Virus record (IMG/VR): IMGVR_UViG_3300049170_000117
Span: 1-28,396 of that record
DNA from: a virus
Lineage: Duplodnaviria; Caudoviricetes
Direction: 5' to 3' (one strand)
DNA: 28,396 nt
In this document: positions 9,538 through 28,396 of the stretch, one piece after another
Layout of the letters: each line of letters starts with the position of its first letter
Position numbering within the stretch: the first letter of the stretch is position 1
Program-made: the position numbers and the translations under genes
Notes under the pieces: model-generated
What the model was told of the DNA's origin: nothing
What the model saw: the letters and a program-made list of their open reading frames with translations, nothing else
Database searches by the model: none

Positions 9538-9573
9538 CGACACCTCTTCGGGTTGTGTGGGCATTTCGGTGAT

Positions 9574-9607
9574 GGTGCGGAGGACGGCGGTTGCCGTCCT
9601 CCGCACC
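9574..9607 (-). terminator. Perfect 15-bp hairpin, terminator-like
   Basis: GGTGCGGAGGACGGC-ggtt-GCCGTCCTCCGCACC just after the exonuclease stop. Confidence 0.6.
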
Positions 9608-9622
9608 GGGGTCTGTGCCGGG

Positions 9623-10753: not shown

Positions 10754-10823
10754 ACAGGTCTCCAAGAAGACGGGGTGCCGCCCGCCGCGCAGGCGGGCGC
10801 ACCCGGTCGGATGGGGGGAAGGG

Positions 10824-11807: not shown

Positions 11808-11829
11808 GTGGTTCTCCAAGAAATTCGGT

Positions 11830-12174
11830 TCAGTCGGTCCGCAGTGCGCGGACCTCGAACGCAGGGGCCCACTCCGGGTGGCGCTCGATGAGCAGCCGGA
11901 CGTAGCGGGAGCGGAAGTTGTTGTTGAGGCGGAACTCGTCGCCTTCGGTGGCGTTGACGTAGCGCCAGCGCAGGACCTCGAAGAGCATTCCGATGCCGAC
12001 GCGCTTGGCGCCGCGCTCGAGGTAGTCGGCGGTCAGGCTCTCCAGAGCCCGCAGGACCCACGGGTTGAGCTGATGGAACGCCTCGAACTGCGCCTGGATC
12101 GTCGCCGCCTGATCGTCGGGCTGCCGCACGGTGTGGATCACCAGGCCCGGAATCTCGTCCTGGATGACTGCCAT
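11830..12174 (-). CDS. Phage-type hypothetical protein
   Basis: FEAFHQLNPWV...LFEVLRW...FRLNNNFRSRYVR resembles a widespread phage protein (recalled, not searched). Confidence 0.78.
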   Translation of the reverse strand: MAVIQDEIPGLVIHTVRQPDDQAATIQAQFEAFHQLNPWVLRALESLTADYLERGAKRVGIGMLFEVLRWRYVNATEGDEFRLNNNFRSRYVRLLIERHPEWAPAFEVRALRTD

Positions 12175-12196
12175 ACCCCGCCCCCTCGTAACCAAC

Positions 12197-12218
12197 TTCA
12201 AGAAGGTCACCTATCTTG
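12197..12218 (-). promoter_or_regulatory. Repeat B, copy 2
   Basis: CAAGATAGGTGACCTTCTTGAA upstream of the recombination operon. Confidence 0.5.
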
Positions 12219-12277
12219 GTGGTTGGGAGCGAGATGATCAACCCCGCTATCAGCAGGCCCGATTCACACCCGCGCGG

Positions 12278-12490
12278 TCAGATCGAGTTGGCTGCCGCTG
12301 CCTCGGCGGCCTCTTCGGCGCGCCGCTCGGCCTGCTCGTTTGCGGCGACGACGTCCCGCAGCATCCGGACCGCAAGATTGGAGTCGGGATTCCCGGCCAC
12401 GTAGCGCATCAGCGCCGCTTCGGTCAGGACGGCTTCCTTCGCCTTCATGACGGCGACGACGTCGCCGCCGGGCGTGTAGATGATCTGCAC
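12278..12490 (-). CDS. Hypothetical protein (70 aa)
   Basis: GTG after AAGGAGG. Confidence 0.75.
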   Translation of the reverse strand: MQIIYTPGGDVVAVMKAKEAVLTEAALMRYVAGNPDSNLAVRMLRDVVAANEQAERRAEEAAEAAAANSI

Positions 12491-12532
12491 TGTTGCCTCC
12501 TTGTGCGAGTAAGGGCAACCCCCGAAGGGGTA

Positions 12533-12552
12533 TACCTATATCTTATTCGTAC
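12533..12552 (-). promoter_or_regulatory. Repeat A, degenerate copy 3
   Basis: GTACGAATAAGATATAGGTA contains the TAAGAT -10; no clear -35. Confidence 0.5.
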
Positions 12553-12581
12553 GCGGGGTCTGAGTACAGTGTTTTCGCAGG

Positions 12582-13187
12582 TCAGAGGCCCTTTCGGGCG
12601 TGGCGCCCGCGTGTCAGCACCACCGAGCCAGGGCCGTCGTAGGTGCCCTCACGCAGAGCTGCCGCCACCTTCTCGTCCACCTCCCACGACAGGCTGCGCG
12701 CGCTCGCGCGCAGCTCGGGCACCGCCTCGATCACGGTGTCCAGCAGCCACAGCCGCGACCCGGACAGCAGCCAGTCCTCTTTCGGGAAGCCGCCCGAGGC
12801 TATCCGCGTCGCAAGGGTGCCCTGCGACGGCAGATGGAACAGCTCAATGATCTCGCGCTGACCAACGATCGCCGGCAGGTCATCACCAAGATCGGCCTCC
12901 CAGCCCTCCCCCTGCTCCGCGATCAGCCGTTCCTTGACCCGCACGTGGACCTGCTTGAACCGGGGCGTGGTGGTGCCGTACCGGGCCGCGAAACCCAGCG
13001 GCCAGTAGCGCACACCGGAGACGACGATGGCGGTCGCCGGGTCCAGGGCGCCTACGCTCGGGCTCAGCCACTGCCCCACCATCTGCGCCTCGACCCCGTA
13101 CAGGGCAGCGAACTCCTGGTGCCCGACCAGATAAGGCTTACGCCCGTGCATCGCCCCGTCCTCGCTGTCTCGCCTCTCGCGTGCCAC
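12582..13187 (-). CDS. Tandem Xis/AlpA-like wHTH DNA-binding protein (alternative start ATG 13151)
   Basis: Two similar units, LVGHQEFAALYGV...SGVRYW and IVGQREIIELFHL...GFP...SGSRLW. Confidence 0.65.
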   Translation of the reverse strand: MARERRDSEDGAMHGRKPYLVGHQEFAALYGVEAQMVGQWLSPSVGALDPATAIVVSGVRYWPLGFAARYGTTTPRFKQVHVRVKERLIAEQGEGWEADLGDDLPAIVGQREIIELFHLPSQGTLATRIASGGFPKEDWLLSGSRLWLLDTVIEAVPELRASARSLSWEVDEKVAAALREGTYDGPGSVVLTRGRHARKGL

Positions 13188-13324: not shown

Positions 13325-13570
13325 TCAGCCCCTGAGCACGGCGTACAGCGTCAGCGCCACCGCCGTGATGCTGACAAGGACGGCGATGGTCGGCAACGGC
13401 CACCGCCCTTTCTCCAGGGACGTCACCCTCTGTTCCAAGTCGTCGACAGCCTTGTCGGTCTGATCGGATCGCTGCACCAGCAACGCGAGCTGCCCGTCGA
13501 TCTTGGCCAGTCCCACCTCCAGCGCACTGCGCAGCTCGGCCAGGGCCAGTGCAACCTCACCCTCCGGCAC
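13325..13570 (-). CDS. Lysis-cassette membrane protein (coiled coil plus C-terminal TM helix)
   Basis: GTG after AAGGAG; follows the holin; hydrophobic C-terminus. Confidence 0.75.
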   Translation of the reverse strand: MPEGEVALALAELRSALEVGLAKIDGQLALLVQRSDQTDKAVDDLEQRVTSLEKGRWPLPTIAVLVSITAVALTLYAVLRG

Positions 13571-13598
13571 GGGATTTCTCCTTCTCTCGTGGCGCAGG

Positions 13599-13844
13599 TC
13601 AGCGGGCGGGGGTGGCGGGGTCGCGCTTGAGCGGCAGCCAGGACGCGGTGCCGGGCCGTCCCAGGACCGTGCCCAGGGTGGACTTCAGCGCCGACAGGGC
13701 AGCGGGTATCGCGGAGACGGCGGCTGCCTGCCACGCCGACAGCGACACCATGTCGGTGGTTCCCGAAGCGGCCATCAGGCCCAGCAGGGACTGGAGGTAG
13801 GTGGCGATCGTGCGTTCGGCGACGTCGGCGAGGGCCTGCGGCAT
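13599..13844 (-). CDS. r1t-like holin from an internal in-frame start (81 aa)
   Basis: ATG at 13844 with upstream AGGAG; AERTIATYLQ motif and two hydrophobic segments. Confidence 0.7.
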   Translation of the reverse strand: MPQALADVAERTIATYLQSLLGLMAASGTTDMVSLSAWQAAAVSAIPAALSALKSTLGTVLGRPGTASWLPLKRDPATPAR

Positions 13845-14807
13845 GGTGTCGGGCTTCTCCTGCTCGTGCTGGTCGGGTGTCGGTTCGGCAGAGCCGGCCG
13901 GATGCGGGACGCGCAGCTTGGCCCAGGTCTCTGGGCCGGGGATGCCGTCGGCGGCAGCTCCGTGATGGCCGCACTCGATCTGCCAGGCCGCGTACGAGCG
14001 GCGGTGCGCGTCGTTCCAGACCGGGCCCGGCCGGGTCTCGTAGGAATCGCAGCCCTCGGCAACCAGCCGCTTCGCCATGGCCTCGATCACCGGCGAGGAA
14101 CGGCCATCGCGGAAGAAATCCTTGCCCGGGTAGGCGGCATACTTCGGCTTCGGCTTCGGCTTCGGCTTCGGATCGGGCTTGGGCTTCGGCTTGCTGGGCG
14201 GCTTGCCCTCGTCCTTGAGATAAGCGGCGACACGGGCACGGAAGTCGTCCATGTCGATGCCGGCGGGGTCAGGCTTGGACGGCTTCCACTCCTTGTGCCC
14301 GATGACGCTGTGCTCGTTCCACCCATGGGCACGGCAGATCGCGGCCGCCGCGCGGGCCATCGCGTCCAGCTGCGCCGCGGGCCACGGCTGTTTCCCGCTA
14401 CCGGAGTTGATGCACTCGAAACCGTAGAAATGCCGGTTGCCGTCCGTGTCTTCCTCGTTGTCGCGCGGGAGTTTCTCCCTCTCCGCGATGACAGCGAGCA
14501 GCACGTCCGTATCACCCATGCCCGCATGGTTGGCCCGGCCGTAGCCGACCAGGTGCACCGTCCCGGCGCGGTCGACCACGCCGTGGCACAGCGGCCCGGG
14601 AAGTTCCTGGTAGCCGACGCGGCACAGCTCCACCATGTCGGCTTCGGACGAGTAGGGGCCGGTGTGGTGGATCATCACCCCGTTCATGGGGCCCCAGTTG
14701 CCGTGGGTGTTGCGGTTGTGGGTGCGCCATTGGCCGTGCTCGACGACACCGAGGCCCGCGTGCTTCAGCACGGACAGGAACTTGTCCGCGCTCAAAGGGG
14801 TTGCCAC
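13599..14807 (-). CDS. Endolysin (N-acetylmuramoyl-L-alanine amidase plus peptidoglycan-binding domain) in frame with an r1t-like holin
   Basis: IHHT, ANHAG, GFE, GHKEW..KPDP; PK linker; ADGIPGPETW binding motif; no stop before the holin part. Confidence 0.88.
   Translation of the reverse strand: MATPLSADKFLSVLKHAGLGVVEHGQWRTHNRNTHGNWGPMNGVMIHHTGPYSSEADMVELCRVGYQELPGPLCHGVVDRAGTVHLVGYGRANHAGMGDTDVLLAVIAEREKLPRDNEEDTDGNRHFYGFECINSGSGKQPWPAAQLDAMARAAAAICRAHGWNEHSVIGHKEWKPSKPDPAGIDMDDFRARVAAYLKDEGKPPSKPKPKPDPKPKPKPKPKYAAYPGKDFFRDGRSSPVIEAMAKRLVAEGCDSYETRPGPVWNDAHRRSYAAWQIECGHHGAAADGIPGPETWAKLRVPHPAGSAEPTPDQHEQEKPDTMPQALADVAERTIATYLQSLLGLMAASGTTDMVSLSAWQAAAVSAIPAALSALKSTLGTVLGRPGTASWLPLKRDPATPAR
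14142..14192. repeat. CTTCGG hexamer tandem repeat encoding the (KP)n linker
   Basis: Five perfect units plus degenerate units. Confidence 0.85.
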
Positions 14808-14972
14808 GCTCGCTTCGCCTTTCTCCCCTGCGCCGTATGGCGGTCGGCCGGACCCATGGGTCTGGGCCGGTCCCTCGGGGAGTTGCTGCGAAGCGGTAGG
14901 TGGAGGGTCACCCGGTCGTCATGGTACCCAGCAGCTGACACAGCGAGCCGCGTCGTCGCTGCTGGTGGGCGC

Positions 14973-15410
14973 TTACTCGTCGTCGCCGTCGATGCGGCAC
15001 GAGGCGCTATCGAGGCTGAGCCAGGCGGCTTTCACGCTGCCGCCGTCCTGCACCCGCAGGGTCATCCTCCCCTCGGGGCTGATGTCGAGATGGAGTTCAC
15101 GGCGGTTCGCATCCGAGGCCACCGGGACGGTGCGGGGCACGGCTGGCCAGTAGCCGTCCGGCAGGAAAGCGACGACTGACTCGTCCACCGCACGTCCACC
15201 TGGCAGACCGATCCGACCGCTGAACTCCAGCGTGTCCCACAGGTTGGCGCGCATCTGCGGCGGCTGCACGGAGTCCGGAACTGCGGTGTCGCCCGTCAGC
15301 GGCAGGTCCCGCCACGGCGGATACGGCGCGCGCCGCGCCCGCTCCAGCACCGTCACCCGCCGCTCCAGTCGGGCCAGGCGGCGCGCGAGCGTGGCGATCG
15401 TGTCCGGCAT
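14973..15410 (-). CDS. Minor tail protein, possible receptor-binding protein
   Basis: N-terminal coiled coil plus beta-rich head (FLPDGYWP, LDISPEG); last gene of the tail cluster. Confidence 0.65.
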   Translation of the reverse strand: MPDTIATLARRLARLERRVTVLERARRAPYPPWRDLPLTGDTAVPDSVQPPQMRANLWDTLEFSGRIGLPGGRAVDESVVAFLPDGYWPAVPRTVPVASDANRRELHLDISPEGRMTLRVQDGGSVKAAWLSLDSASCRIDGDDE

Positions 15411-16514
15411 CTACTTCTCCTCCGCCTCATCCGCGCCGTCGGCGGGCTTCACGCTGCGGTCCAGCTTCAGCGTCACGCGCTCGGCGGTCTCGCCCTGGCC
15501 GGGCCGTACGGTCCAGCCGACGATCCGGTTCCATCCGTCGTAGGTGGTGTGCGGCTCGTGCAACCGGATACGGACGTCATCGCCGATGCGCAGCGAGGAG
15601 ATCGGCGCGGCCGGGTGATCGACGATCTCCAGCTCGGTGAGCTGCGGCAGGATCTGCCGAGCCAGGCGTTCGCGCCGGGTGCGCTGCTTGAGCTTGGCCT
15701 CGTCCTTCTCGCTGGTCTCCAGCTTGTGCTCCAGGCGCAGCCGCCCGTTGCGGTCGCCGTCGACAACGACCTTGCGCTTCTTGCCCTCCCCCGCGCCCAG
15801 GCCGACGACACACTGGGCGTACTCGTCTGCGTCCTTGATCACCTGGGGTTCGCCGACGACGTTGGCGCCGGTGGTGAACGTCAGGTCCTCGCGACGCCGG
15901 CCGAGCTTCGGAGCGCCGAGGATGATGCGCCGCTCGGCGCGGCGTCCGCGCCAGGCCACGGTCTCGGACCACTCCAGGCCGTCATCGATGTCGGCCATCT
16001 CGTCCACGATCTCGCCCAGATTCCGGGCATCCCAGCGGGGGATGTCGTACGGGTCCTTCGCCGTGCCGGTTTTCGCCGTCGACTTGGTGTCGTCCACGAC
16101 GACCTCGAGGTTGCCGTCCGGCTGCTGTTGGGCGTAGGCCCACACATCGCGGATCACCTCGCACGGGTCCGCCTCGATGTAGGGGCCGCGCCCGCCGAGG
16201 TTGCCGTGCAGGTCGAATCGGCGGTGCAGGTAGCTGGTGAACCCGGACGCTTCGATGGGCAGCTTCGGCCCCTGCGGTTCGGCTCGCCAAATGAGCCCGC
16301 CCCACAGGAGCTTGGCGTCCCGCTCGGCGTACAGCACGGCGTTTCCGGCGTCGAGCATGTCGTTCAGGGAACGGGCGAACGTCGGCGACAGCGTGGCGCT
16401 GAGCGAGCCGGGCCCGGAAATCTCCGGCCCGAACTCCACTTCGCTCAGCGGCAGGTTCCAGTGCAGGATCTCGCCGGTCGCGGCGCGGGCGACGATGTAG
16501 CGGTAGTCGGGCAT
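15411..16514 (-). CDS. Siphovirus minor tail/hub protein (ReqiPepy6 Gp37-like)
   Basis: Position after Dit; LWGGLIW, GLGAGEG and IGDDVRI motifs. Confidence 0.78.
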   Translation of the reverse strand: MPDYRYIVARAATGEILHWNLPLSEVEFGPEISGPGSLSATLSPTFARSLNDMLDAGNAVLYAERDAKLLWGGLIWRAEPQGPKLPIEASGFTSYLHRRFDLHGNLGGRGPYIEADPCEVIRDVWAYAQQQPDGNLEVVVDDTKSTAKTGTAKDPYDIPRWDARNLGEIVDEMADIDDGLEWSETVAWRGRRAERRIILGAPKLGRRREDLTFTTGANVVGEPQVIKDADEYAQCVVGLGAGEGKKRKVVVDGDRNGRLRLEHKLETSEKDEAKLKQRTRRERLARQILPQLTELEIVDHPAAPISSLRIGDDVRIRLHEPHTTYDGWNRIVGWTVRPGQGETAERVTLKLDRSVKPADGADEAEEK

Positions 16515-17443
16515 CAGACGGGGCTTTCCGTGAACTCGATGTCGGCGGTAACCGTGGTGCCCTTGGCCACCGACAGGTCACCGTCGCCGTACTTGTCGAT
16601 CTGGTTGATCTGCACGGCCAAGTACTGGCGGGTGCCGCGGTAGGCGGGCGGCACAGCGAGGGTGTCGGCCAGCACGACGGTGGCGCGGCGCGTGGTCGTG
16701 CCGTCGTCGTCGACGACGGTGGGCTTGGAGGTGCGCTCGCCCAGGCGCATGCGCATCTCGGCATAGATGCTTCCCGCCTCCGCGCGCAGACCGGAGAGGG
16801 TGATCACGAGGGTGGCCTTCGTCGCCCAGGCCGGCACGTCCACCTCCCAGGCCGCGTCCTTGGGCCAGGCCGCCCAGTGGCCGTGCTTGCCAGGCACCTT
16901 CTCGGTGTCGTCGGGGTGCACGGTGCGCAGGGTCCGCTCGGTGCGCGGATTGGCGATCCGCCGCAGGTCCGTGATCATCTCCGCGGTGACGGCCGCGGTG
17001 TTACGGGGCAAGGTGATCCGCGCCAGCGGGATGGCGGTCAAGCCGCGCGGCGCAGGGGTCTCCTCGTTGCCGATGTCCTGGATGAGGTGGAAGTAGCCGA
17101 TGTCCTGCGTGCGCGGGTCGCGTTCGCCCTCGAATTCCGGGTCCTCGATACGTAGGACGAGCAGGTCGGTCCGGGTGAACGGGCCGGTCGGCGGGATGTC
17201 CACTACGGCGTCGCCGATGTTGCTCTGGGTGTAGGCACCCTGCCAGGGCCGTGCGCCGTGGATGAGAGCCGAGCCGTCGCCGACTCGGACGCCGGGGCCC
17301 GGGGCTTCCAGGGGGCGGACCTTCAAGTCGCCGGCTTCGGCGATGCCCTGCCGGCCGCGTGCCAGGTCGCGGATCATCAGCCGCATGGCGCGGGCTGGAT
17401 GGTTGCCGCCGCGCACCATCATCGGGGGCTGGACAAGGGTCAC
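16514..17443 (-). CDS. Minor tail protein
   Basis: GTG at 17443 after GGAG; RTDLLVLRIEDP and IPLARITLP...ITDLR motifs typical of actinophage minor tail proteins. Confidence 0.78.
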   Translation of the reverse strand: MTLVQPPMMVRGGNHPARAMRLMIRDLARGRQGIAEAGDLKVRPLEAPGPGVRVGDGSALIHGARPWQGAYTQSNIGDAVVDIPPTGPFTRTDLLVLRIEDPEFEGERDPRTQDIGYFHLIQDIGNEETPAPRGLTAIPLARITLPRNTAAVTAEMITDLRRIANPRTERTLRTVHPDDTEKVPGKHGHWAAWPKDAAWEVDVPAWATKATLVITLSGLRAEAGSIYAEMRMRLGERTSKPTVVDDDGTTTRRATVVLADTLAVPPAYRGTRQYLAVQINQIDKYGDGDLSVAKGTTVTADIEFTESPV

Positions 17444-17454
17444 TGCTGCTCCAT

Positions 17455-18411
17455 TCACAGGGCGGTGTACGCCGAGCGCCACGACACGTCGAGGCTGGCG
17501 GTACCGGTGGGGTCGTCGGCGCTCCAGCCGATCTCCGAACGGCCCGGCGGGATGGCGAACAAGTCGAGGCGCGACTCGGGGGTGAGGTCGTTGGCGACGT
17601 TGGTGACGCTGTTGCGCAGGGCCCAGCAGGTGTTGGGCCGGGTCTCCATCTCCACCCACTCCCCGGCGCGCAGCGACAGGCCGAGTTCGAGGACGCGGCG
17701 GGTGGCGGTGTTCCAGATGCGCGGGTTGGTGACCGGGCCGTGGAGACGGATGCTGGGCCACGAGGCGACGTTGCCGTGGTTGGTGATCCATCCGGGCCGG
17801 TCGTCTCCGGGCTTGTGGTCCGGGTCGTCGCTGGCGCAGCAGGCGGGCGGGCACATCGCCTTGTCCACCGTGCGGTCGCCGGAGGTGTGCCGGGCGGCCT
17901 GGTCGAGGCCGAGCGTCAGCTTCGACAGGTCGTCGGCGTACCAGCGCGGGTCCGTGGCCGCGAACTCGATGTCCAGCGGGATCCACCCGTTGATCGCCGT
18001 GGTGGTGCTGGTGGCCTCGACGCGGCGCAGCCGCCCGTACAGGCGGCGTGTGTTGTGGCCGGGCCAGCGTCCCCGCAGGACGGCCCGTCCCTCGGGGCGG
18101 GTACGCGCATCCGGGGTATCGAGCGCCAGCTCCAGGCGGGCGAGGAGATCCGCGGCCGCTTCCGGGTCGCCGGGCGTTTTGATGCCGGCTTCCATGCGGA
18201 TGGTCCGTGGCCCGTAGAAGTCCTGGCCGGGGAAGGTGCCGTCACCGTTCGGGTTGTCCACATCCTGGGGACGGGTGGCAGGCGACCCGAGCCCTTCGAC
18301 GTTCCCCACCGGGATACGGGTACCGGTGCCGAGGACGACGCCGCCGATCTCGTACTGCCAGGGGGCAAGCTCGATCGGTATGGGCGGCTGCTGCTTCGTT
18401 GGTGTGGTCAT
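17455..18411 (-). CDS. Distal tail protein (Dit)
   Basis: Immediately after the TMP (TGATG overlap); FAATDPRWY, ITNHGNVASWP, GPVTNP. Confidence 0.82.
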   Translation of the reverse strand: MTTPTKQQPPIPIELAPWQYEIGGVVLGTGTRIPVGNVEGLGSPATRPQDVDNPNGDGTFPGQDFYGPRTIRMEAGIKTPGDPEAAADLLARLELALDTPDARTRPEGRAVLRGRWPGHNTRRLYGRLRRVEATSTTTAINGWIPLDIEFAATDPRWYADDLSKLTLGLDQAARHTSGDRTVDKAMCPPACCASDDPDHKPGDDRPGWITNHGNVASWPSIRLHGPVTNPRIWNTATRRVLELGLSLRAGEWVEMETRPNTCWALRNSVTNVANDLTPESRLDLFAIPPGRSEIGWSADDPTGTASLDVSWRSAYTAL

Positions 18412-21400
18412 CAAACCCTCCCGCCCCGTTGGGCATTGCGCAGGTTGCGCATCATTTCTGTGCCGATCTGCTCAGGAGTCGCGGAGCTGGAGGTGACCGT
18501 GACCGGCATGGTGCCGATCAGCGGCTGCTGCTCGCGGACGACAACGACCTGGACACGTCCGCCCGCGCGGCCGTCGACGACCCGCGTGCGGGCGCGATCC
18601 GATCCGGTGCGCACGTCGAAGGCGCGGACGACGCCCGCCATGACCTCCGCGCTCTTGGCCCGCTTGAACGAGCTGGCAACCATGGGGCTGTAGTCGCGGC
18701 TGGCCCGGCCTCGCACGCCGCCGTTGGCGAACCACTCGACCTGCCCGCCGAAGCGGCCGACCACGTCCTCCACAACCGCCTTGCTACGTACGCGCTTTGC
18801 GGGCGACAAAGGCACATATGCCTCGCCCTGAGTCTCTGGTTCACCCCATATGCGCCACGATCCGGCCGGAGCGATCTGCGCAACGTGTTGCTCGCGGCGG
18901 CGCGGACCGGCCACTCCTTCCCGGACACCGCCGTTGGCGTAGTACTCGACCACTCCGCCGTTGGCCTGGTTGAACCCCTTGTAGTTGGGGTTCTGGATCA
19001 TGTCGGGGATGCCGTTGGCGTCCTTGTCATGCGACGAGGGCTTTCGGATCAGTGAGGTGAAGATCGGGATCGTCCTGCCGCGCAGGGCGTTGATGCGGCC
19101 CTGGATGTCGTCGGCCGCCTTGCGCGCGCCGCCGGTCGGGACGGTGACCTTGACGTTCTTGGAGCCGGGCACCTTCTCGATCCGGAAGCCGAGCGCCTCC
19201 AGCTCCTTGCGGGCCTGCGCGGTTGGGGCGCGGACCGTGACGGACTTGGCACCCGGCGTCGCCCGGACCTTCGCCTGAACCGCCTCCAGGCTCTTGATCG
19301 CGGTCCCGGTCGGGGCGGAGACCCGCACGTTCTTCGAGTTCGGTGTCCGGCCGAGCTTGTCGATCAGCCCGTCCAGGTTCTTCTTCGCCCCGGCGGTCGG
19401 CGCGGTGATCTTGATCTGCCGGGTACCCGGCACGGTCTTGACGGTGAAGCCGAGGCTGCGCAGCTTCTTCTGCGCGCCGTCGCTCAGCGAGTCGACCTTG
19501 ATGGTCCTCTGCTTCGGCAGCCGGTGGAACTCGGCCTGCACCGCGATCAGGTTCGCGAGCGTGCTGTCCATGCCCTTGGTCTGCAGCAGCAGGGACACCT
19601 TGGAGGGCAGCAGGCCGAGGCTGTCGGCGACGCCCTCGGCCTGTGTCTTGGTCAGCCCGTAGCTGCGCGCGGCCCGGATCGCCTCGGCACGGGCCCGGCT
19701 CATCTCCCCGCGGGCCTTCGCCAGTGCGTCGGGCAGCGCCTCGCCGTTGCGCTGCGCCAGGTCGTAGGTGGCCACCGAGGCGTCGGCCGCCGCGTCGGAC
19801 AGGGCGGTGAGCTGGGTGTAGAGCTGCTGCCCGTTCCTGGTCGTGGTGTTGAGGGTCTTGTCCTCGTTGACCAGCTGCTTGCCGCCGTAGCCCTCCTTCT
19901 GGTTGACGTTCTTGCCACCCTCCTTCAGGTCCAGGACGGCGCTGTTGACCTTCGCCTTCGCCGCCTGGAGGGAGATCTGGCCGCCCGACAGCAGGTCGAG
20001 GGCGCTCTTGAGGGAGCGGGTGCGGGTGTCGGCGTCGGCAGTCTGATCCGCGAGACCGCCGACCGCCGTCTTGAGCCGGTCGTACGCCGAGGTGCCGTCG
20101 CCGGCACCGCGTGTCGCCTTCGCCAGCTCCTTGGCGTTCTTGATCGACTCGGACATCTCGCCCTTGACGCTGCCCAAGGCGTCGGCGGCGTCCTTGTACT
20201 GCTGGCCGACATCGGAGTAGTCCTGAACGGTCGCCTTACCGCCTGCCACGTCCTTCCACACCTTGTGGCTGTCGGCGGTGGCTTGGAGCCTCTTCTGCAG
20301 CGCGTCCAGGGACGTGCCCTGGCCGAGGTAGGCGTCGGTCAGCGTGGAGATCGGCACCCCGGCCTCTTCCATGACCTTGGTCAACTGGCCCTGAGAGACC
20401 TTCGTATCCAGCAGGATCTGCGCGGCCTGCCCGCGTACGTCGCTATTGATCTGCCCGCCCGACTCCCGCAGCGCGGAGGTCAGGGAGGAGATGCGGGACT
20501 GGTGCTCGGCCGCCGCCTGCGCCGCACGCTGCTGGCGGGCGGCGAGCATCCCCAGGCCGACCGAGACACCGGCCATGGCGATACCGAAAGGCCCGCCCAG
20601 CGCGCCGGAGATACCGGACATGGCCGAGCGCAGGCCCGAACCGGCCGCGCGCGTGACCCCGTTCATCGTCCCCATGAACGTCACGCCCGCGCCGTTCGCG
20701 CTGCGGAACGCGGCCGTCATGCTGCCGAGGAACCCCACCCTCGCCTGCACTGCAGCCCAGGCCGCGCCGTACCGGTTCAGCGACACCCCCGTGCTCGCGG
20801 CCAAGGTCTGCTGGAGCCGCATCTGCTGGGCGAAGCTCTGGAACCCGGTGCGCACGGGGCCGGTGACGGTGTTGGCGAGGCTGGTCAGGCCGGGCTGCGC
20901 CCTGCGGAACAGCAGCATCGCCAGGGCCGCCGACTGGATGGGAGCGGGCAGCGCACCGAAGGCGCTGACCAGTCCGCCCACCACGTGCCCGATCGGCACA
21001 AGGACGGCGGACAGGCCCGACACCGCGTCCATGGCGACGCTCGCGACGGTGGCGATGATGTCGAGCGTGCCGGCCGCAGCGCCCCCGTCCTTCCCCAGAC
21101 CCGAGAGCGCGGACACGATGGGCTCGGCACCGTCGGCCGCGTTGCGCAGGACGTCGCCCAGCGTGCGAGCGGCATTGATCAGAAGGTTCAGGCCGGTGGC
21201 GAGGGTGTGTTCGCCCAGCTCCTTGAGCGGCCCCAGCAGCCCCCGGGCCTCGTCTATCAGGCCGCCGAGTCCGGAACCCGCCTTGGCCTTCAGCTCCGGC
21301 CCGTACAGGATCGCGAGGTTGCGGCCGTACTCCAGCGCGGTAGTCAGGTATGGCGTTGCCCCCGCCATTCCGCGCGTCAGCAGCCGGGTCACGTACTCCA

Positions 21401-22679
21401 GGCCGGGGGCCATGCCCTCGTACAGCGCCAGGCCGGTCTGCTTGGCCTGGGTACGCAGCTGCGTCATCGCACCGGTCAGACCTTGACCGCGCGAGGCGGT
21501 GATGGACGCGGCGGCCCCGGTCTGGCGCACCGCCACCGACAGGGCGTCGAACGACTCGGTCCCCTGATGCGCCAGCGCCGCCGCCCCGGACAGCGCAGGC
21601 TTGCCGAACGCCCGGGTGACGCCTGCGGCGAAGTCCTTCTGTGACAGGTTGTGCTCGGCCTTCGACAGGCCGTCGATCACCACGCGAAGGCCCCTGAACT
21701 GCCCCTGGGCGGTCCAGGCGTCGATCCCCAGGTCCTTCAGCGCGCCCCGCATCTGCGGCGTCGGCGCGGCCAGGTTCGCGAAGATCCCCCGCAGCGATGT
21801 GCCTGCCGTCTGCCCGAGGATGCCGCTCTTGCCGAGCATGCCGACCGCTGCCGCGGTGTCCTGCAGCGAGACGCCGAGCGCGTTGGCGACCGGTCCGGCG
21901 TACCGCATCGAGTAGTAGATGTCGGTGATCGAGCCGGACGCGTTGTTCGCCGTGGCCGCCAGCGTGTCCGAGGCCCGCGAAGCCTGATCAGCACCAAGAC
22001 CGAATTGGTCCATGATGTCGCCCAAGTACTTTGCCGACGTTGCGGCGTTGACGTCGGCAGCTGCGGAGAGCTGGAGCGAGGCACGTACGGCGTCGATGGA
22101 CTGGTCCGCGCGGAATCCCGCCTTGCTCAGCTCGACCATGCCCTCGGCCGCGTCGGCCGCGGTCGAGCCCGGAAGGCTCAGGTCGTTGCCGAGTTCCTGC
22201 GCGACGGCCGAGGCGCGCTTCATCTGTCCGGCGGTGGCCGAGGTGACCGCCCGGAACAGGTTCATCTGCTTCTGGTAGCGGTTGCCCTCCTGGACCATCT
22301 CGCCCGCGCCCAGGAGCAGGCTGCCGCCAGCGAGCATGTTGGTGGCTGATAGGCCGCGCCGACCCGCGCCAGCCGTCGCGCGTTGCAGCCGGGACATGGA
22401 GCGGGCGCCGTCGTCACCGGCCGCGCGCAGACTGGCACGTGCGGCTCCGGCGCGAGCGGCGATCCGGTTCAGCTCACCGACGGCGGAGCGGGTGGAGCGG
22501 TTGAGCGCCGCGAACTGGCGGGCGAGGCTCGCCCCGTTCGCATCGAGCCGGGCCAGCGAGCGGTTGGCGGCATCCGTGCGGTCGGCAAGCGTCCGCATCT
22601 GACCGGAGGCAGCACGAGTTCCCGCGATCAGGTCGCGGACCTCGGCGCGCATCGCCACGGTCAGGGTGAACCCAGCCAC
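18411..22679 (-). CDS. Tail tape measure protein (TP901-like core), 1422 aa
   Basis: Ala/Gly-rich; core GILGQTAGTSLR; C-terminal ANGG and GEPETQGEAYVPL motifs. Confidence 0.95.
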   Translation of the reverse strand: MAGFTLTVAMRAEVRDLIAGTRAASGQMRTLADRTDAANRSLARLDANGASLARQFAALNRSTRSAVGELNRIAARAGAARASLRAAGDDGARSMSRLQRATAGAGRRGLSATNMLAGGSLLLGAGEMVQEGNRYQKQMNLFRAVTSATAGQMKRASAVAQELGNDLSLPGSTAADAAEGMVELSKAGFRADQSIDAVRASLQLSAAADVNAATSAKYLGDIMDQFGLGADQASRASDTLAATANNASGSITDIYYSMRYAGPVANALGVSLQDTAAAVGMLGKSGILGQTAGTSLRGIFANLAAPTPQMRGALKDLGIDAWTAQGQFRGLRVVIDGLSKAEHNLSQKDFAAGVTRAFGKPALSGAAALAHQGTESFDALSVAVRQTGAAASITASRGQGLTGAMTQLRTQAKQTGLALYEGMAPGLEYVTRLLTRGMAGATPYLTTALEYGRNLAILYGPELKAKAGSGLGGLIDEARGLLGPLKELGEHTLATGLNLLINAARTLGDVLRNAADGAEPIVSALSGLGKDGGAAAGTLDIIATVASVAMDAVSGLSAVLVPIGHVVGGLVSAFGALPAPIQSAALAMLLFRRAQPGLTSLANTVTGPVRTGFQSFAQQMRLQQTLAASTGVSLNRYGAAWAAVQARVGFLGSMTAAFRSANGAGVTFMGTMNGVTRAAGSGLRSAMSGISGALGGPFGIAMAGVSVGLGMLAARQQRAAQAAAEHQSRISSLTSALRESGGQINSDVRGQAAQILLDTKVSQGQLTKVMEEAGVPISTLTDAYLGQGTSLDALQKRLQATADSHKVWKDVAGGKATVQDYSDVGQQYKDAADALGSVKGEMSESIKNAKELAKATRGAGDGTSAYDRLKTAVGGLADQTADADTRTRSLKSALDLLSGGQISLQAAKAKVNSAVLDLKEGGKNVNQKEGYGGKQLVNEDKTLNTTTRNGQQLYTQLTALSDAAADASVATYDLAQRNGEALPDALAKARGEMSRARAEAIRAARSYGLTKTQAEGVADSLGLLPSKVSLLLQTKGMDSTLANLIAVQAEFHRLPKQRTIKVDSLSDGAQKKLRSLGFTVKTVPGTRQIKITAPTAGAKKNLDGLIDKLGRTPNSKNVRVSAPTGTAIKSLEAVQAKVRATPGAKSVTVRAPTAQARKELEALGFRIEKVPGSKNVKVTVPTGGARKAADDIQGRINALRGRTIPIFTSLIRKPSSHDKDANGIPDMIQNPNYKGFNQANGGVVEYYANGGVREGVAGPRRREQHVAQIAPAGSWRIWGEPETQGEAYVPLSPAKRVRSKAVVEDVVGRFGGQVEWFANGGVRGRASRDYSPMVASSFKRAKSAEVMAGVVRAFDVRTGSDRARTRVVDGRAGGRVQVVVVREQQPLIGTMPVTVTSSSATPEQIGTEMMRNLRNAQRGGRV

Positions 22680-22716
22680 CGCCGCGGCCCTCCTTACATA
22701 CGTCGTGCGGGTTGGA

Positions 22717-23058
22717 TCAGGTGTGGTCGCGGTGCTGGTGGCGAGGCAGGAGCTGGATCTTCACGCCGTAGCCGGAGCGGTCGCCGGGGACGTGGTCGCG
22801 CTCCTGCTCGATCAGCTCGCAGCCGGGGCAGCGCAGGGTGTCGGTGACGTAGGCGTGCCGGTCTCGATCCCACTCCTCCAGCCGGGTGTGGCACTCGGGG
22901 CACACCGCGCGCTGCCACTCCGCCCAGGCCAGGGCCTTGGCCCGGTCCAGCTCCGTCCACCGGCCGTCGCCGCCGAGGAACTGGGAGTGCGGGATGCGGT
23001 ACCTCTCGCACAGCTCCAGCTCGGCCCGCAGGTGCAGGTCGCGGCTCAGCCTTTTCCC
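22717..23058 (-). CDS. Tail assembly chaperone, -1 frameshift extension (gpT-like)
   Basis: Open -1 frame entered at GGGAAAA; CPEC...CPGC; lies directly upstream of the TMP. Confidence 0.82.
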   Translation of the reverse strand, partial: GKRLSRDLHLRAELELCERYRIPHSQFLGGDGRWTELDRAKALAWAEWQRAVCPECHTRLEEWDRDRHAYVTDTLRCPGCELIEQERDHVPGDRSGYGVKIQLLPRHQHRDHT

Positions 23059-23603
23059 AGGTCGACCCGGCTTTCCTGCTGGACCTGCCAGGCCGCCTCC
23101 CACAGGAGGTTGGCGTCCGGTGCCGACCAGGTGGACAGCAGCTCAGCTGCCTCGTCCTGGCTCATCCCGTCGAAGGACGCCGCCGAGATCAGCGCAGCGG
23201 GGAAGGTGTCCGGATTGAACACCGCCCCCTCTTCCGCCTGTTTCTCGGTCGGGGGGTGCGCGGCGATCAGCTCTTCCAGGACCGGGCGCGGCAGCGCCAG
23301 GAACGTGAGGAAGTCCGAGGCGTCGTCCAAGGCGGCGCTCGCTGTCTCGAAGGCCGCTTGCGCTTCGGCGGCGCGCTTTGCCGCCGGCTCGTCGTCCGGT
23401 GTGGCCTCGGCGATGAACCGGGCGCGCTGGGCGTCGCGTTCGGCGTCCGCGACCTGCTCTCTGAGCTGGTCGTCGTCGCAGACACGGAGCTTGTTCTGCG
23501 GCCTGGCGCGGCGGCGCAGGCGGTCCATCTTGGACGCCCACGCCCCCTCCGCTGGCGTATCGCGGGGAGGGGACGGGCGCTTGGCCGGTGCGGGGCGCGA
23601 CAC
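23046..23603 (-). CDS. Tail assembly chaperone (gpG-like)
   Basis: Between tail tube and TMP; ends DLGKG over the slippery site. Confidence 0.85.
   Translation of the reverse strand: MSRPAPAKRPSPPRDTPAEGAWASKMDRLRRRARPQNKLRVCDDDQLREQVADAERDAQRARFIAEATPDDEPAAKRAAEAQAAFETASAALDDASDFLTFLALPRPVLEELIAAHPPTEKQAEEGAVFNPDTFPAALISAASFDGMSQDEAAELLSTWSAPDANLLWEAAWQVQQESRVDLGKG
23052..23058 (-). other. Programmed -1 ribosomal frameshift site GGGAAAA
   Basis: G GGA AAA heptamer at the conserved G/GT position. Confidence 0.85.
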
Positions 23604-23605
23604 GG

Positions 23606-24223
23606 TCAGTCCTCGCCGTGCTCGTGGACGGTCGCGGCGGTCTTGGTGGTGCTCACGACGGTGACGTCAACGTGGTCCTCGCCGTGGTCGTCGTCGCAGT
23701 CCTCGGGGGGCACCGGAAGGGTGTGGAACGCCTCGGGCACCACGGCGTCCAGCGACGGCTCGTCGATGATGGTGAAGTCGACCTTGAACTTGGCCGCCTC
23801 GTTACCCGTCGAGTACGTGGCGGCGCGGGTAGCGACCTGTACCGGGAAGACATCCACGGAGCGGGAGCCGGGGATGTCACCCTTACGCAGCAGGACGACA
23901 TAGCCCTTCGCGCCCTTGGGCAGACGCTGCTCGATCTCGTCAGAGTGCCGGTCCTCATAGAAGGTCAGGCTGGAGTTCTCCGCCTTGTCGTTGCCCGGGA
24001 TCGAGGAGTTGAACGTCGAGCCCATGTCAGGGGTCTCGATCGGGTCGTTTTCCAGCGCCCAGCCCTCGATATCCGAGACGGCGTTGGTCAGGTCGAACCG
24101 GTTGGGCTCGCTGATTTCCTTGCGGGACGGCCACTTCGGGTCGGTGATCGCCTTGAGCCAGTAGATCTTCGAGATGCCGCGCCGCAGGAATCGGGTCTGG
24201 GTGGCAGGCTTCTTCAGGGACAC
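23606..24223 (-). CDS. Major tail (tube) protein
   Basis: GTG at 24223 after GGGAG; DLTNAV..IEGW, TPDMGSTF...IPG, DVFPVQV typical of actinophage tubes. Confidence 0.85.
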   Translation of the reverse strand: MSLKKPATQTRFLRRGISKIYWLKAITDPKWPSRKEISEPNRFDLTNAVSDIEGWALENDPIETPDMGSTFNSSIPGNDKAENSSLTFYEDRHSDEIEQRLPKGAKGYVVLLRKGDIPGSRSVDVFPVQVATRAATYSTGNEAAKFKVDFTIIDEPSLDAVVPEAFHTLPVPPEDCDDDHGEDHVDVTVVSTTKTAATVHEHGED

Positions 24224-24344
24224 AGGTCCGCTCCCACTTCTGGGGCAGCGTCCCGTGCCGAGGCCCTGCCCCTTGAGGTTCAAAGGGGGTTCGCCTGGCC
24301 TGGGGCCTAGCGTCCGCGCGGGCCTCCGCGGTGAGGAAGAACGT

Positions 24345-24797
24345 CTATGCAGCGGGGGTCACGGTGATCGTGAACCGCTGCACGTAAGACACGATAGCGC
24401 CTGCCGCCGACACCGACGGCTCCCCTCCGGAGTCGTGATCCAACTCCCGGTCGATCACACGGGCTTGAGGAACATGCAGGTCATAGGCCCATTCCTCGTC
24501 GGTGCGGCCGACGACGCCATGGCGTACGCGGTCGGCGAGCCACTGCACCTGGTCGTCCCGCTCGCCAACCGAGGTCACCTGGTACGCCCATGCGGCGTCC
24601 GCGTGCCAGTCCCACAGCGGCGGGCCGCTGAACTCTCCCGGCAGCGAGTCCAGGATCGTGTACGGGACGGATGCCGCCTCCCACTCCCCCGACCGGCCCC
24701 GCACGCGGGGCAGTTCACCGATGCCGCACGGCCGGCCGGTCGCCGTCGCGATGAGCGCGGCGAGCCCCCGGGTTACCGGCAGGCGTACGGCGGTCAC
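24345..24797 (-). CDS. Tail terminator/completion protein
   Basis: GTGA overlap; PYTIL and YQVTSVG motifs; synteny. Confidence 0.7.
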   Translation of the reverse strand: MTAVRLPVTRGLAALIATATGRPCGIGELPRVRGRSGEWEAASVPYTILDSLPGEFSGPPLWDWHADAAWAYQVTSVGERDDQVQWLADRVRHGVVGRTDEEWAYDLHVPQARVIDRELDHDSGGEPSVSAAGAIVSYVQRFTITVTPAA

Positions 24798-25222
24798 GGC
24801 AGAACTCCGTCCACCAGGGCCTGGATGAAGCCAGGTTGTGCCTGCCGGAAGGCGGGCTCGACGTGCGGGAACGGCCGCTGCCGGTAGTGACGGCCGAGGG
24901 AGTCGACGCCGACGAAGCCGTACTCCAACCTGCGCGCCTGCGGGGCGTCGGAAAACACCTCCGCCGTCACCTGCCCACCGCCCGTTCGCATCCGCACGTC
25001 CCACGACGCGCGGTACTGACCAGTGATCACTCGCGGTCCGGGACGGCCGGAGGCGTGGCGCTGGATCCTGACGCGCAGCAGCATCGCGTGATGCCGGGTG
25101 ATCGTACGCGTACGGGCACGAGCGGCCGGACCCATCCGGGCCAACGCGGCAGCCAGCGCGATCGGGTCACGGAACGCCGTGGCGTCAGGGTGCGCGTTCG
25201 GATGCGGGTTCGCGACAGCCAT
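24794..25222 (-). CDS. HK97 gp10-like neck protein
   Basis: ITGQYRASW, ARRLEYG, RPFPHVEPAF. Confidence 0.82.
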   Translation of the reverse strand: MAVANPHPNAHPDATAFRDPIALAAALARMGPAARARTRTITRHHAMLLRVRIQRHASGRPGPRVITGQYRASWDVRMRTGGGQVTAEVFSDAPQARRLEYGFVGVDSLGRHYRQRPFPHVEPAFRQAQPGFIQALVDGVLP

Positions 25223-25653
25223 CAGTCGATCACCTGCACCCTGACGATGCGCACCACGCTGAAGGTGCCGACGTTCTTGTCCGACACCCGGAAGCGGCGG
25301 CCGACGAGCTGCGGGTCACGCGGCCCGCCCGGCCGTACGGACCCGGCGACGCGGATCACGTCGTCGGGCCGCAGCTCCGGGGCATGAACCGGCAGCACCG
25401 CCTGGTAGTCGGTGGTCGGCGGCTCCTGCGCGACCGCGCCGCCCAGCGGCTTGGTGATCGCTGGACGCCCCAGCGGCATCACCGCGCCGAGCCCGTCCCA
25501 GATCAGCACCTCGTCCGGCGCCGGCGACACCATCTGCCCCGTGGTCTCGTCCAGGTAGTCGTCCGCGCGGCCTGCGCTGTCGCGCCACGCCTCCAGCTTG
25601 TCGTCCAGGAGGCGGCCGACCACCCGCCGCGCCCCCTCCACGTCAAACGCCAC
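25222..25653 (-). CDS. Head-closure/stopper protein (DUF6093-like)
   Basis: LDETTG, IWDG, LRPDDVIRV, DPQLVGRRFRV; synteny. Confidence 0.75.
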   Translation of the reverse strand: MAFDVEGARRVVGRLLDDKLEAWRDSAGRADDYLDETTGQMVSPAPDEVLIWDGLGAVMPLGRPAITKPLGGAVAQEPPTTDYQAVLPVHAPELRPDDVIRVAGSVRPGGPRDPQLVGRRFRVSDKNVGTFSVVRIVRVQVID

Positions 25654-26014
25654 GGGCCCACTCCCCGAGCTGGGTGAGCATCGCCTGCGTCAGCGAGTGC
25701 GGGCCCGTGCCGAGGTCGGGCCTGGCCAGCGCGGTCCGTTCCAGTTCCTCGGTGTCGATCGCCGACAGGAAGACCGCAGCGGCCGGGCCGGGGTCGGGCA
25801 TATCGGCGACGGCGACGCGGGCCAGGCCCTCGAAGGCGGTCTCGGCGTAGTCCCCGGAGTAGAGGATGACCTGCGGCGGCTCGCCCTCTCTGTGGCTGAC
25901 GGTGTAGCCGCTCAGGGCTCCCGGGTCCACCCGCTGCCCGTCGATCTCGATCGCGGCCTTCGGACCGCGGGCGGTGATCCGCACGCTGTGCAGGTCCTCT
26001 TCGTTGTGATCCAT
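25643..26014 (-). CDS. Hypothetical protein (123 aa), first gene of the structural operon
   Basis: ATG at 26014 lies 7 nt after TAGCGT (possible leaderless -10); overlaps the next gene. Confidence 0.7.
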   Translation of the reverse strand: MDHNEEDLHSVRITARGPKAAIEIDGQRVDPGALSGYTVSHREGEPPQVILYSGDYAETAFEGLARVAVADMPDPGPAAAVFLSAIDTEELERTALARPDLGTGPHSLTQAMLTQLGEWARGV

Positions 26015-26378
26015 TCCCTCAACGCTAGGGCGGCTGTCGGACACCACCCCAGGCAAGCAAGATCGTTCTTGCCCAATTGTGCAAACACGGGTGGGCGGCC
26101 GCTCCGGCCACCCACCCGCACGCCACTTCGCAAGTGTTAGGGTCCGCGACTTTATGCGCACCGGCTCCTGCAGAAACCTGGGAATCCGGGCTGGGTGAGC
26201 AGTGACGGTCGGTACGTTTTGAGCAATCGGTAGCGTCTCCATGGGGAGGCCGGTGACTGTGCGTGCGTTGCCGGGTCGGTGGGCTCCCGCCCTCGGTTTC
26301 GCCGTCGAGTCTCAAAAACCACGGCCGATCGTGAAATGGCTGGCAGCCGCCATGCCGGCTCTGGCAGGGTCGGCGCGC

Positions 26379-26810
26379 ATGAGCTGCACATTCTGCCGCC
26401 TGATCCACGAGGACACCGCTCGCTGGGTGTTCCGTGGCCAGCTGGCCTCCGCGTTTGCTCCGCTGAACCCTCTCGCGCCAGGGCACACCCTGGTGATTCC
26501 AACATCCCATTACGCGGACATCTTCGATACGCCGTCGGAGGTCCTGTCCGGGACCATGGCGCTAGCCAAGCGAGTTGCCGTGGAGATGCGGACCACGTTG
26601 GCGGCCGGAGGTGTGAACATCCTCAGCGCCAGCGGTCCCGGTTCCGAGCAGTCGGTGCCCCATCTCCACTTTCATGTGATTCCCCGCTGGCGGGATGACG
26701 GATTCTCGACCTGGCCGACGCAGCAGTCCCAGCACCAGGTCGACGGCGACCCCGTTGTACAGCTCACCGCCGCCATGATGGCCAGCGACGGGACAACTGA
26801 CAGCTACTGA
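26379..26810 (+). CDS. HIT family nucleotide hydrolase
   Basis: CTFC, PGHTLVIP, HLHFHVIPR histidine triad. Confidence 0.92.
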   Translation: MSCTFCRLIHEDTARWVFRGQLASAFAPLNPLAPGHTLVIPTSHYADIFDTPSEVLSGTMALAKRVAVEMRTTLAAGGVNILSASGPGSEQSVPHLHFHVIPRWRDDGFSTWPTQQSQHQVDGDPVVQLTAAMMASDGTTDSY

Positions 26811-27148
26811 ACGTCGCTGTTGCTCAGGCTGCCCAGTCGAGGCCACGACGCCTTGCGTTGGTCACGATCAGTAGCAGGTGATCAGAGCTGCTCGGAAGCG
26901 TTGAAGTTCGTGGCCTCCTACGCCCCCCAGCAAGGAGTCGCTGCCCCAGGACCGCAGCTACTCATCCTTGTCCCAGTAGTAGTCATCACCGGGATCATTG
27001 GGCTCGGCAGCGTGGGTAGGCCGCTCATCGAATCCGGAGACGGCGGTGGGGCTTTCCACGTCACGAGCCACCGCGTCCACGACGCTCGGCAGCCTCCCGA
27101 TCCATTTGTGCGGCCAGGAGGAGGCTGAGGCTCGCTGGCGTGTGCGGC

Positions 27149-28396
27149 TCAGCCCCTCGCGCGGTAAACGTCGGCGCTCCTCCTGAGGGGGTCGTACACC
27201 AGCCCGTACCGGTCGTTGACCATGGATGGGGCGAGGCCGATGTCCGTGCGCAGGTCCGTGCCCGTGCGGGCGTCGAGAATCATGGGGCCGTTGGCTTCGG
27301 CGTAGACCAGGCCGTGCCACGCCGAGGTCACCTCCGGCGCGACACGGTTCGCAGCTTCGTCCGGCAGGCGCCACAGCACGCGTGCGGTTCGCAGGTCCAC
27401 GGCCGTGACAGTCGCGGAACCGGATCCATCGGTACCGGAGCAGACGGTCGTGGTCCAGCCGTCGTAGTGGCAGTTGCGTGCCCCATCTTTCATGTCCAGG
27501 CTGATCTTCCCCGTGACCGGGTCGAGAAGCAGGCTGCCTGCCCCGATCCCGTTCGCCAGGGTTAGCCCGGGACCCGGATCCGCCGTCCGCGCCTCGCCGG
27601 TGATCACCGGCCGCTTCCACAGTTGACGGCCGTCCGAGGTCGACTTGCCCACGAGTTCGCCGTCGTCGCGTGTACCGACGGCCACCGTCTTCTCCAGGTC
27701 GATGCCGTCGAGGTCCCGGTCCGTCCAGATCACCCGGCCGGTCCGCGCATCGAGTAGGACGCTCATGCGTGGTGTCTCTGAGTAACCCTCCTCGGACACT
27801 GACACGAGTACTCTTCGGCCGTCCGCCCCGACGACACGAGGGGTGCCCGCCCAGGTGTCGTCGTCCTTGGCGAGCTCGCGTGCCCACAACTGGCTGCCTG
27901 TGGCCGCGTCGAGTGCAATGATCTTGATGGCTTCGTGTCCCGCGGAGGTTCCTTCACCCTCCTTGCTCGTGGCGAAGGCCCCAACCACAGCAGTGCCCGC
28001 CATGCGCGGCGCATGTTTACGCGGCATGACTCCAAAGGAATCGCCGTCTTGCACGGGTGCGTGCCAGGCGATCTCTCCGGTGTCGAGCTGGTAGGCAGTG
28101 ACGCCGACGTCCTCCTCGTCGTCGTAGGTGTATGCCAGATGGTCGCCGAGTGTCACGGTGTCGGTGAGGCTGTCGAAGTGCTCCACCAGGGACCAGGGCA
28201 TGTCGATCGAAGCGAAGGCTTCCGGCTCGAAGATCTGGGGCGGGCCCTGTGGCTGCGTCCCGCCGGTGCTCGTAGTCGAGCCCGATGAGGCGCCGTACGG
28301 TGCCTTTCCCCCGGCCGCCGTCTGGCCGCCGCCACAAGCGGCCAGGGAGCATGCTGCCGTGGCCGCTGCCGCCCTCAGGAGTACTCGTCCCCACAT
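27149..28396 (-). CDS. PQQ-like beta-propeller repeat lipoprotein
   Basis: Lipobox LAAC; repeated LDxxTGxxxW blades. Confidence 0.85.
   Translation of the reverse strand: MWGRVLLRAAAATAACSLAACGGGQTAAGGKAPYGASSGSTTSTGGTQPQGPPQIFEPEAFASIDMPWSLVEHFDSLTDTVTLGDHLAYTYDDEEDVGVTAYQLDTGEIAWHAPVQDGDSFGVMPRKHAPRMAGTAVVGAFATSKEGEGTSAGHEAIKIIALDAATGSQLWARELAKDDDTWAGTPRVVGADGRRVLVSVSEEGYSETPRMSVLLDARTGRVIWTDRDLDGIDLEKTVAVGTRDDGELVGKSTSDGRQLWKRPVITGEARTADPGPGLTLANGIGAGSLLLDPVTGKISLDMKDGARNCHYDGWTTTVCSGTDGSGSATVTAVDLRTARVLWRLPDEAANRVAPEVTSAWHGLVYAEANGPMILDARTGTDLRTDIGLAPSMVNDRYGLVYDPLRRSADVYRARG

Follow-up and report, generated by a model that had tools for sequence, protein, structure and literature searches.

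The window analysed here is the whole of a 28,396-bp virus record (IMG/VR IMGVR_UViG_3300049170_000117; G+C about 69%) that carries almost all of its genes on the minus strand, including an open neck-tail-lysis operon (13325–26014) followed on the same strand by a replication module. The tail module is non-contractile, and its tape measure, chaperone frameshift and lysis genes are features of a temperate siphophage. A first-pass annotation of this DNA noted that the window holds no head gene and that a HIT gene and a probable lipoprotein lie upstream of the operon instead; domain matches (PF01230, PF13360) and a negative tblastn search of the window with seven head proteins from a close relative (E 0.01) bear this out. 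That annotation proposed a self-amplifying non-contractile tailocin, a tail-donating or capsid-borrowing satellite, or a phage-plasmid with a displaced head. Comparison with related sequences leads us to conclude instead that the window is very probably the right-hand half of an integrated Streptomyces siphoprophage related to ZL12 (pZL12, GQ919031), whose head genes would lie upstream past a variable cargo region.

Window gene identities were assigned by PHROGs and Pfam searches. The operon opens with gp1 (25643–26014), a homologue of pZL12.58c (46% identity for the window protein, 45–47% for close relatives), for whose function Pfam, PHROGs, Atlas, a poor fold model (predicted local distance difference test, pLDDT, 52) and a viral fold search returned nothing usable. 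Next come a DUF6093 protein whose position marks it as the probable head-closure (stopper) protein (25222–25653; PF19586, E 1.7e-20), an HK97-gp10-like tail completion or neck protein (24794–25222; phrog_5, E 2.6e-13; PF04883), a probable tail terminator, likewise named from its position (24345–24797; 38% identical to pZL12.55c), and the tail tube protein (23606–24223; PF25595, E 2.7e-46; phrog_2491). The tail assembly chaperones (22717–23603) are joined by a predicted −1 frameshift at GGGAAAA (23058–23052); the slippery heptamer is in phase, the −1 frame stays open for 111 codons, to 22717, and the site is kept in 14 of the 14 relatives examined, in agreement with the earlier statement that the frameshift is preserved. 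Downstream lie the gene for a tape measure of 1422 aa (18411–22679; PF10145, E 6.3e-45), which holds five 87-nt repeats in its C-terminal part (19119–19512), and the tail tip genes (14973–18411), encoding Dit, a minor tail protein, a minor tail protein at the Tal position and a 145-aa terminal protein (phrog_33/5577, phrog_25212, phrog_1885). The 145-aa protein (14973–15410), which closes the tail genes, is 70–99% conserved in 12 of 13 relatives, and no long fibre like pZL12.47c is present.

The lysis genes comprise an amidase endolysin that shares one frame with an r1t-holin-like C-terminal domain (13599–14807; PF01510, E 8.8e-23; PF16945, E 8.9e-5, under the curated cut-off) and a small membrane protein that ends the late block (13325–13570; phrog_5225, E 1.3e-23, function not annotated). 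The amidase/holin-like fusion is 402 aa long, may contain an internal start and recurs in two relatives (G001 and G002), while the holin of pZL12 is encoded by a separate upstream gene. None of the 12 frames checked, gp1 through the lysin, is interrupted by a stop codon, and the last gene (13570–13325) is also an open reading frame (ORF). Gene junctions mostly overlap or abut (−11 to +2 nt), with exceptions of 121 nt 5′ of the tail tube gene and 165 nt 5′ of the lysin gene, so the first-pass description of an open and mostly coupled series from neck to lysis also holds.

Upstream of gp1, similarity among relatives starts at the right cargo junction, which coincides with a predicted leaderless promoter (26022–26043, minus strand). 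Beyond it, the window encodes a HIT-family hydrolase (26376–26810, plus strand, start approximate; PF01230, E 1e-19), with a 72% homologue directly upstream of gp1 in the cargo of one relative (L014), and a PQQ-type beta-propeller protein (27149–28396, minus strand; PF13360, E 4.6e-12). The latter is a probable lipoprotein, its lipobox having been judged by eye; around a 69% relative, the nearest 10 kb contain no phage gene belonging to this family. The record ends at the first in-frame ATG of the PQQ-type gene, its last base (28396) being the first base of an ORF, and a stop codon sits among the record's first bases. The right end of the window is accordingly where the record was trimmed, and the element does not end there. 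A 7,346-bp contig from sequencing run X1 matches 25820–28396 with zero differences and extends 4,769 bases further, although this run is possibly the window's own source and hence not independent; three other runs (X2–X4) contain related tail pieces only, and no RNA run was listed as carrying the sequence.

Evidence on the missing head comes from relatives. A DUF6093 search recovered 16 Streptomyces loci, of which 14 have the tail operon and two (G013 and G014) are remnants that keep only gp1-neck or DUF6093 pieces, with neither tape measure nor head; these two were not counted among the 19 genomes with a close tail module. Querying with the ZL12 capsid identified one intact capsid gene in each of five relatives, and across the 19 genomes a cognate capsid gene, which contradicts the headless reading, was found in 18. 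It lies on the same contig and strand in 17 of these, 14.2–88.8 kb upstream of the tail tube gene. The sole exception (G015) is a 5.1-Mb incomplete metagenome-assembled genome whose tail sits on an 8.8-kb contig and which has no head match. Head and tail occur 1:1, including two of each in one genome (G007). Furthermore, among 401 sampled Streptomyces genomes, all 34 with a tail-tube match of at least 43% also have the capsid; four weaker tail-tube matches (29–37%) came without a capsid (E 1e-40), and three genomes gave a capsid match only. Head, tail and replication distances correlate across 13 elements (Spearman 0.43–0.74; the pairs are not independent).

The 13 close elements share one gene order, running from the integrase region (where present in the stretch) through TerS, TerL, portal, scaffold, decoration, capsid, a small gene and an adaptor-like gene to the cargo, and then from gp1 into the tail, lysis and replication genes of the window. 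Genes for a tyrosine integrase, ParB and a methylase precede TerS, and the head genes match PHROGs 6299, 979, 64, 2303 and 29 (TerS, TerL, portal, scaffold and capsid, respectively). All seven head genes are without stops or frameshifts in 13 of 13 elements. Median ratios of nonsynonymous to synonymous substitution (dN/dS), which are rough estimates in this high-GC DNA, are 0.11–0.21 for head genes, also in members larger than 100 kb, and 0.08–0.30 for tail genes, with neck genes most constrained (0.08); these values point to purifying selection on the head block in the relatives. The nearest phage terminases are 33–42% identical and uninformative as to terminase class. The adaptor-like gene of the relatives yielded a good fold model (pLDDT 74), whose top PDB hit was a chain from the phiCD508 neck at E 0.63, so that the name "adaptor" is a suggestion drawn from gene position and predicted fold. 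Direct attachment (att) repeats of 44–152 bp at tRNA 3′ ends were found for nine of the 13 relatives, with element sizes of 64.0–136.0 kb; they were not found for G005, G008, G009 and G011 in the stretches examined, and none lies inside the window. The close clade is present in nine of the 401 Streptomyces genomes (about 2%). No isolate of the clade was found among 50,697 phage records, in which the tail tube matched ZL12 only.

What separates the two halves is a cargo slot that spans from the adaptor stop codon to about 36 nt before gp1 and measures 11.7–86.4 kb in the 13 close elements. The window's record stops 2.4 kb into this slot, which is at least 11.7 kb long in 13 of 13 relatives. The 10 kb upstream of the tail block varies from locus to locus, and none of 138 proteins scanned there belongs to a head family (Pfam). 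Measured from capsid to tail tube, the gap is 14–89 kb in the close clade, 15–73 kb in 15 distant members and 3.5–4.3 kb in eight plasmid-type members. Five elements carry a Dpd island in their cargo (DpdA, B, D, E, F, H, J and K with queuosine-pathway genes) and one (L010) a Dnd cluster; other contents include lanthipeptide and lasso-type clusters for ribosomally synthesized and post-translationally modified peptides (RiPPs), tRNA synthetases, NUDIX and phosphotransferase genes, with LanB, LanC and a PF01135/PF14028 enzyme in the cargo of L009. The prophage clade so defined carries Dpd, Dnd and RiPP islands between its head and tail genes, and not one cargo gene cluster recurs in all 13 elements. 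Since pZL12 holds two small genes at the corresponding position, the slot is probably ancient and has grown in the integrated lineages. Two candidate origins of the layout were rejected. Past the stop codon of the adaptor gene the left junctions have no sequence in common, which, with the lack of a universal cargo cluster, speaks against a target duplication, or a mobile element common to all, as the cargo. Nor does an att site separating head from tail account for the split, since the head is located upstream in the same orientation and the att repeats lie at the two ends of the element as a whole.

The same break appears in deposited virus records. In 18 of 22 IMG/VR capsid records the sequence stops no more than 4.1 kb from the adaptor gene, in seven of them at its stop codon, and among 18 tail-tube records, two contain both halves and 16 start 1–7 kb before the tail tube gene. 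Ten of these 16 tail-only records share a source identifier with a head-only record (eight identifiers in total). The window fits the tail-only class, and the virus caller probably treated the cargo as host DNA. In this reading the "headless phage" is false, an artefact of how records are trimmed, and IMG/VR head-only and tail-only records of the ZL12-related family are not to be taken for satellites or tailocins.

Once detached from the head genes, a tail operon has to have a promoter of its own. The motif TGTC-N12-TAnnnT lies at 26022–26043, 29 nt before the gp1 ATG, and is present at 27 of 28 loci (some of them near-duplicates); from this site the gp1 transcript would be leaderless. A second occurrence, TGTCGG-N10-TATCGT (24412–24391), falls within the probable terminator gene, upstream of the tail tube gene. 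The motif is present at this place in each of 14 copies, and a synonymous third base there remains T, though T makes up 10% of such sites in that gene. The motif also precedes the scaffold gene in seven of 13 elements. Within nine elements it occurs 34 times in sense and never in antisense orientation (7 and 2 for the reversed control), and it is enriched genome-wide in four hosts (96–118 versus 16–41). A motif of the same geometry stands upstream of recA in five of five hosts, and tandem WYL genes about 1 kb apart, putatively pafBC, occur in five of five hosts. The phage motif agrees in geometry with the PafBC consensus tGTCgg(N10)tA(N3)T (PMC8635444), with GTC at about −26 and N10 to the TAnnnT −10 box. 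Like PafBC-dependent (RecA-NDp) promoters it shares this geometry with host recA; it differs from them in preceding phage structural genes and in reading TGTCCGAC. An alternative in which TGTCNGACA serves as a palindromic operator was set aside, as it has just two window matches versus 0.4 expected and the directional two-part motif fits better.

Some observations count against PafBC control. The phage motif reads TGTCCGAC, whereas host sites mostly read TGTCAGTG (positions 5–8 differ), a discrepancy that makes a phage-encoded activator possible. No copy of the motif precedes the gp1 homologue of pZL12, G121, G317, G076, G161 or G216, although it is present in G268, G034 and G051. Finally, an initial search is reported not to have found the PafBC motif conserved in S. 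venezuelae (PMC9380542). On balance, we lean slightly towards late genes that would be read by host RNA polymerase with PafBC, and in this clade the idea that a host DNA-damage promoter governs late genes can be put to the test. We also observed that the first Dpd helicase gene in the cargo of G001 (L038, about 10430), as well as of G004 and G312, is preceded by a host-type TGTCAG-N10-TAnnnT, and the Dpd island may be damage-inducible too.

Considered against known systems, the element appears to function as a ZL12-lineage temperate siphophage whose accessory slot is unusually large. ZL12 shares its gene order and has homologous capsid, portal, neck, tail tube, tape measure, tail tip and amidase proteins (35–64%); its capsid is the best match among deposited phages (51%), and the tail tube is 43–50% identical to those of ZL12 and its plasmid relatives (85–94 kb). 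In contrast to the clade, pZL12 has two small genes (60c and 59c) in place of the 11.7–86.4 kb cargo, is a circular plasmid with FtsK-type transfer genes and a TerL 30–33% identical to the clade's, possesses a long tail-fibre gene and a separate holin, and lacks TGTC-N12-TAnnnT in its structural region. The layout of a ZL12-type phage-plasmid, an extrachromosomal circle of about 90 kb with contiguous head and tail genes, is not that of the close clade, which is integrated and has a gap of 14–89 kb. In P2-like phages and P4 satellites, defence hotspots, like phage morons, occupy a fixed slot between conserved genes that is refilled with defence or accessory genes. The clade's slot is similarly fixed and refilled, and differs in that it splits head from neck genes, reaches 86 kb and takes up whole Dpd or Dnd islands and RiPP clusters.

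F-type tailocins, which are not known to carry a replication module or integrase, resemble the window in their non-contractile tail operon and lysis genes, whereas the ZL12-related family encodes head and tail on one element. Phage-inducible chromosomal islands that form capsids (cf-PICIs), described as encoding capsids and taking tails from elsewhere, show a comparable modular separation of head and tail, whereas the ZL12-related family has both halves. Lanthipeptide clusters have been reported in defence islands on or near prophages (10.1101/2024.06.26.600839); the LanB, LanC and PF01135/PF14028 genes of L009 resemble them, and the available portion of that report does not describe the split-layout family. 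In full-text literature, no description was found of the family, the split layout or its PafBC-type late promoters, a search that excluded supplements, where prophage tables could list such elements; the accessible part of the Samy paper (PMC11302927) mentions neither ZL12 nor the cargo. What remains is a family variant with two testable points, its late-gene control and the packaging of very different genome sizes.

We propose that DNA damage would cause the element to excise and replicate, that TGTC-N12-TAnnnT promoters, probably recognized by the host's RNA polymerase together with PafBC, would drive the head and tail blocks as separate transcription units, and that complete tailed particles would be assembled from both. 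Cargo would be replaced when the conserved sequences on its two sides recombine homologously, for which the element's own RecT/exonuclease pair is a plausible agent. Several att sites, the patchy spread and the relationship between G001 and G004 (136 and 127 kb), whose elements are 92–97.5% identical over about 100 kb while their flanks are 78–85% identical, indicate that a very large member moved recently as a unit. Of 35 plasmid-relative records, 33 fall between 84.8 and 94.1 kb, the kind of range to be expected from a capsid limit; the integrated clade does not stay within it. Its size spread could be explained by variable capsid size, headful packaging or particle-free transfer, and raises the question of how a single head type would serve genomes of 64 to 136 kb; that the largest members (>120 kb) are packaged into particles seems to us doubtful, if far from implausible. 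We advance only tentatively the wider picture of a widespread integrated ZL12-like clade, with head and tail operons split by a cargo bay of up to 86 kb and late genes wired to the host PafBC single-stranded-DNA alarm, that would have moved defence and peptide-biosynthesis islands between Streptomyces species in 64–136 kb elements escaping the usual capsid limit.

The same sizes bear on a different view of function, in which the element would be a domesticated gene-transfer vehicle that packages headfuls of element or chromosomal DNA after damage, its largest members travelling by another route such as conjugation, so that size is not capsid-limited. The breadth of 64–136 kb against the narrow range of the plasmids, the host-type promoter motif at late genes, missing from the structural region of pZL12, and the identity shared by G004 and G001 above that of their flanks all agree with such a vehicle. 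However, the intact integrase, the att repeats, the several att sites and the patchy spread (9/401) resemble an autonomous phage, and no transfer genes were found among the 76 shared clusters scanned. We regard this view as unlikely, though worth entertaining.

Other observations weigh against a complete prophage at this locus. The window copy's own head was not seen, the DNA known past 28396 amounts to only 4.8 kb, and a range of 64–136 kb fits a single capsid size badly. Some wear is also apparent: the O-like initiator is duplicated in the window, and the N6 methylase gene (1–831) ends at 276 of about 345 aa, its last 15 bases unrelated to the homologue, which suggests that the left end of the record contains an insertion or a junction. 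With the unread upstream DNA and the precedent of remnants in G013 and G014, the truncated methylase could mark the window as a decaying copy of the same prophage family that has lost its head block. Such a remnant is very improbable, given that all tail frames are open, that no complete-looking genome with an intact tail was without a head, and that the record ends 2.4 kb into a slot of at least 11.7 kb.

More improbable still is that the window represents one half of a pZL12-like phage-plasmid that exists free in the cell, its head genes lying elsewhere. Structural proteins 35–64% identical to those of pZL12 and the ParB genes of relatives speak for it, and the first-pass option of a head displaced past the window is in substance supported by the relatives. 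The plasmid part of that proposal did not stand: the close relatives are prophages in chromosomes or long contigs with an integrase and tRNA att repeats, and the plasmid-type members have a gap of just 3.5–4.3 kb and tail tubes of 43–53% identity. A self-amplifying F-type tailocin or a tail-donating, capsid-borrowing satellite, suggested by the intact tail and lysis genes without a head gene in the window and by the headless match in G015, is the least credible and was rejected because head and tail co-occur (same contig in 17 of 19 relatives, a capsid gene in every one of 34 tail-tube-positive genomes, two copies of each half in G007), with G015 an incomplete assembly, the elements bearing replication genes, integrase and att, the head, tail and replication distances correlated, and the neck genes at a dN/dS of 0.08.

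The remainder of the window, a prophage half in our reading, is occupied by replication and early genes on the minus strand. The replication and recombination module (8306–13187; PHROGs and Pfam) encodes a tandem-helix-turn-helix-like protein (12582–13187), RecT, a Cas4-like exonuclease and two O-like initiators, and contains an inverted repeat (8665–8730) that is a candidate origin. The N-terminus of the O-like initiator carries a tandem duplication (8955–9537; 275 nt, 85%) that is shared with G005 and not with the other 12 elements. The early region (1–8288) encodes a C5 methylase, WhiB, HU, RuvC and the truncated N6 methylase. Two TTG-N-TAAGATATAAG promoter/operator repeats (8238–8288 and 2117–2167) mark early promoters, and the repeat is likely a repressor site.

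Further features were observed among the relatives. A 150-aa integrase-fragment-like gene with its own TGTC-N12-TAnnnT follows the lysis block in eight of 13 elements (L043:6764–7219 and homologues) and is not in the window. Tandem islands at one tRNA occur in two genomes: G210 has a second integrase-ParB-methylase block after attR (C1, about 5,682,000–5,692,000), and G001 has three att copies downstream (C1, about 6,085,000–6,101,000). In the more distant members G268, G034 and G051, a DUF6093-like gene stands before the gp1 homologue, and the promoter motif is present at both genes in G034 and G051.

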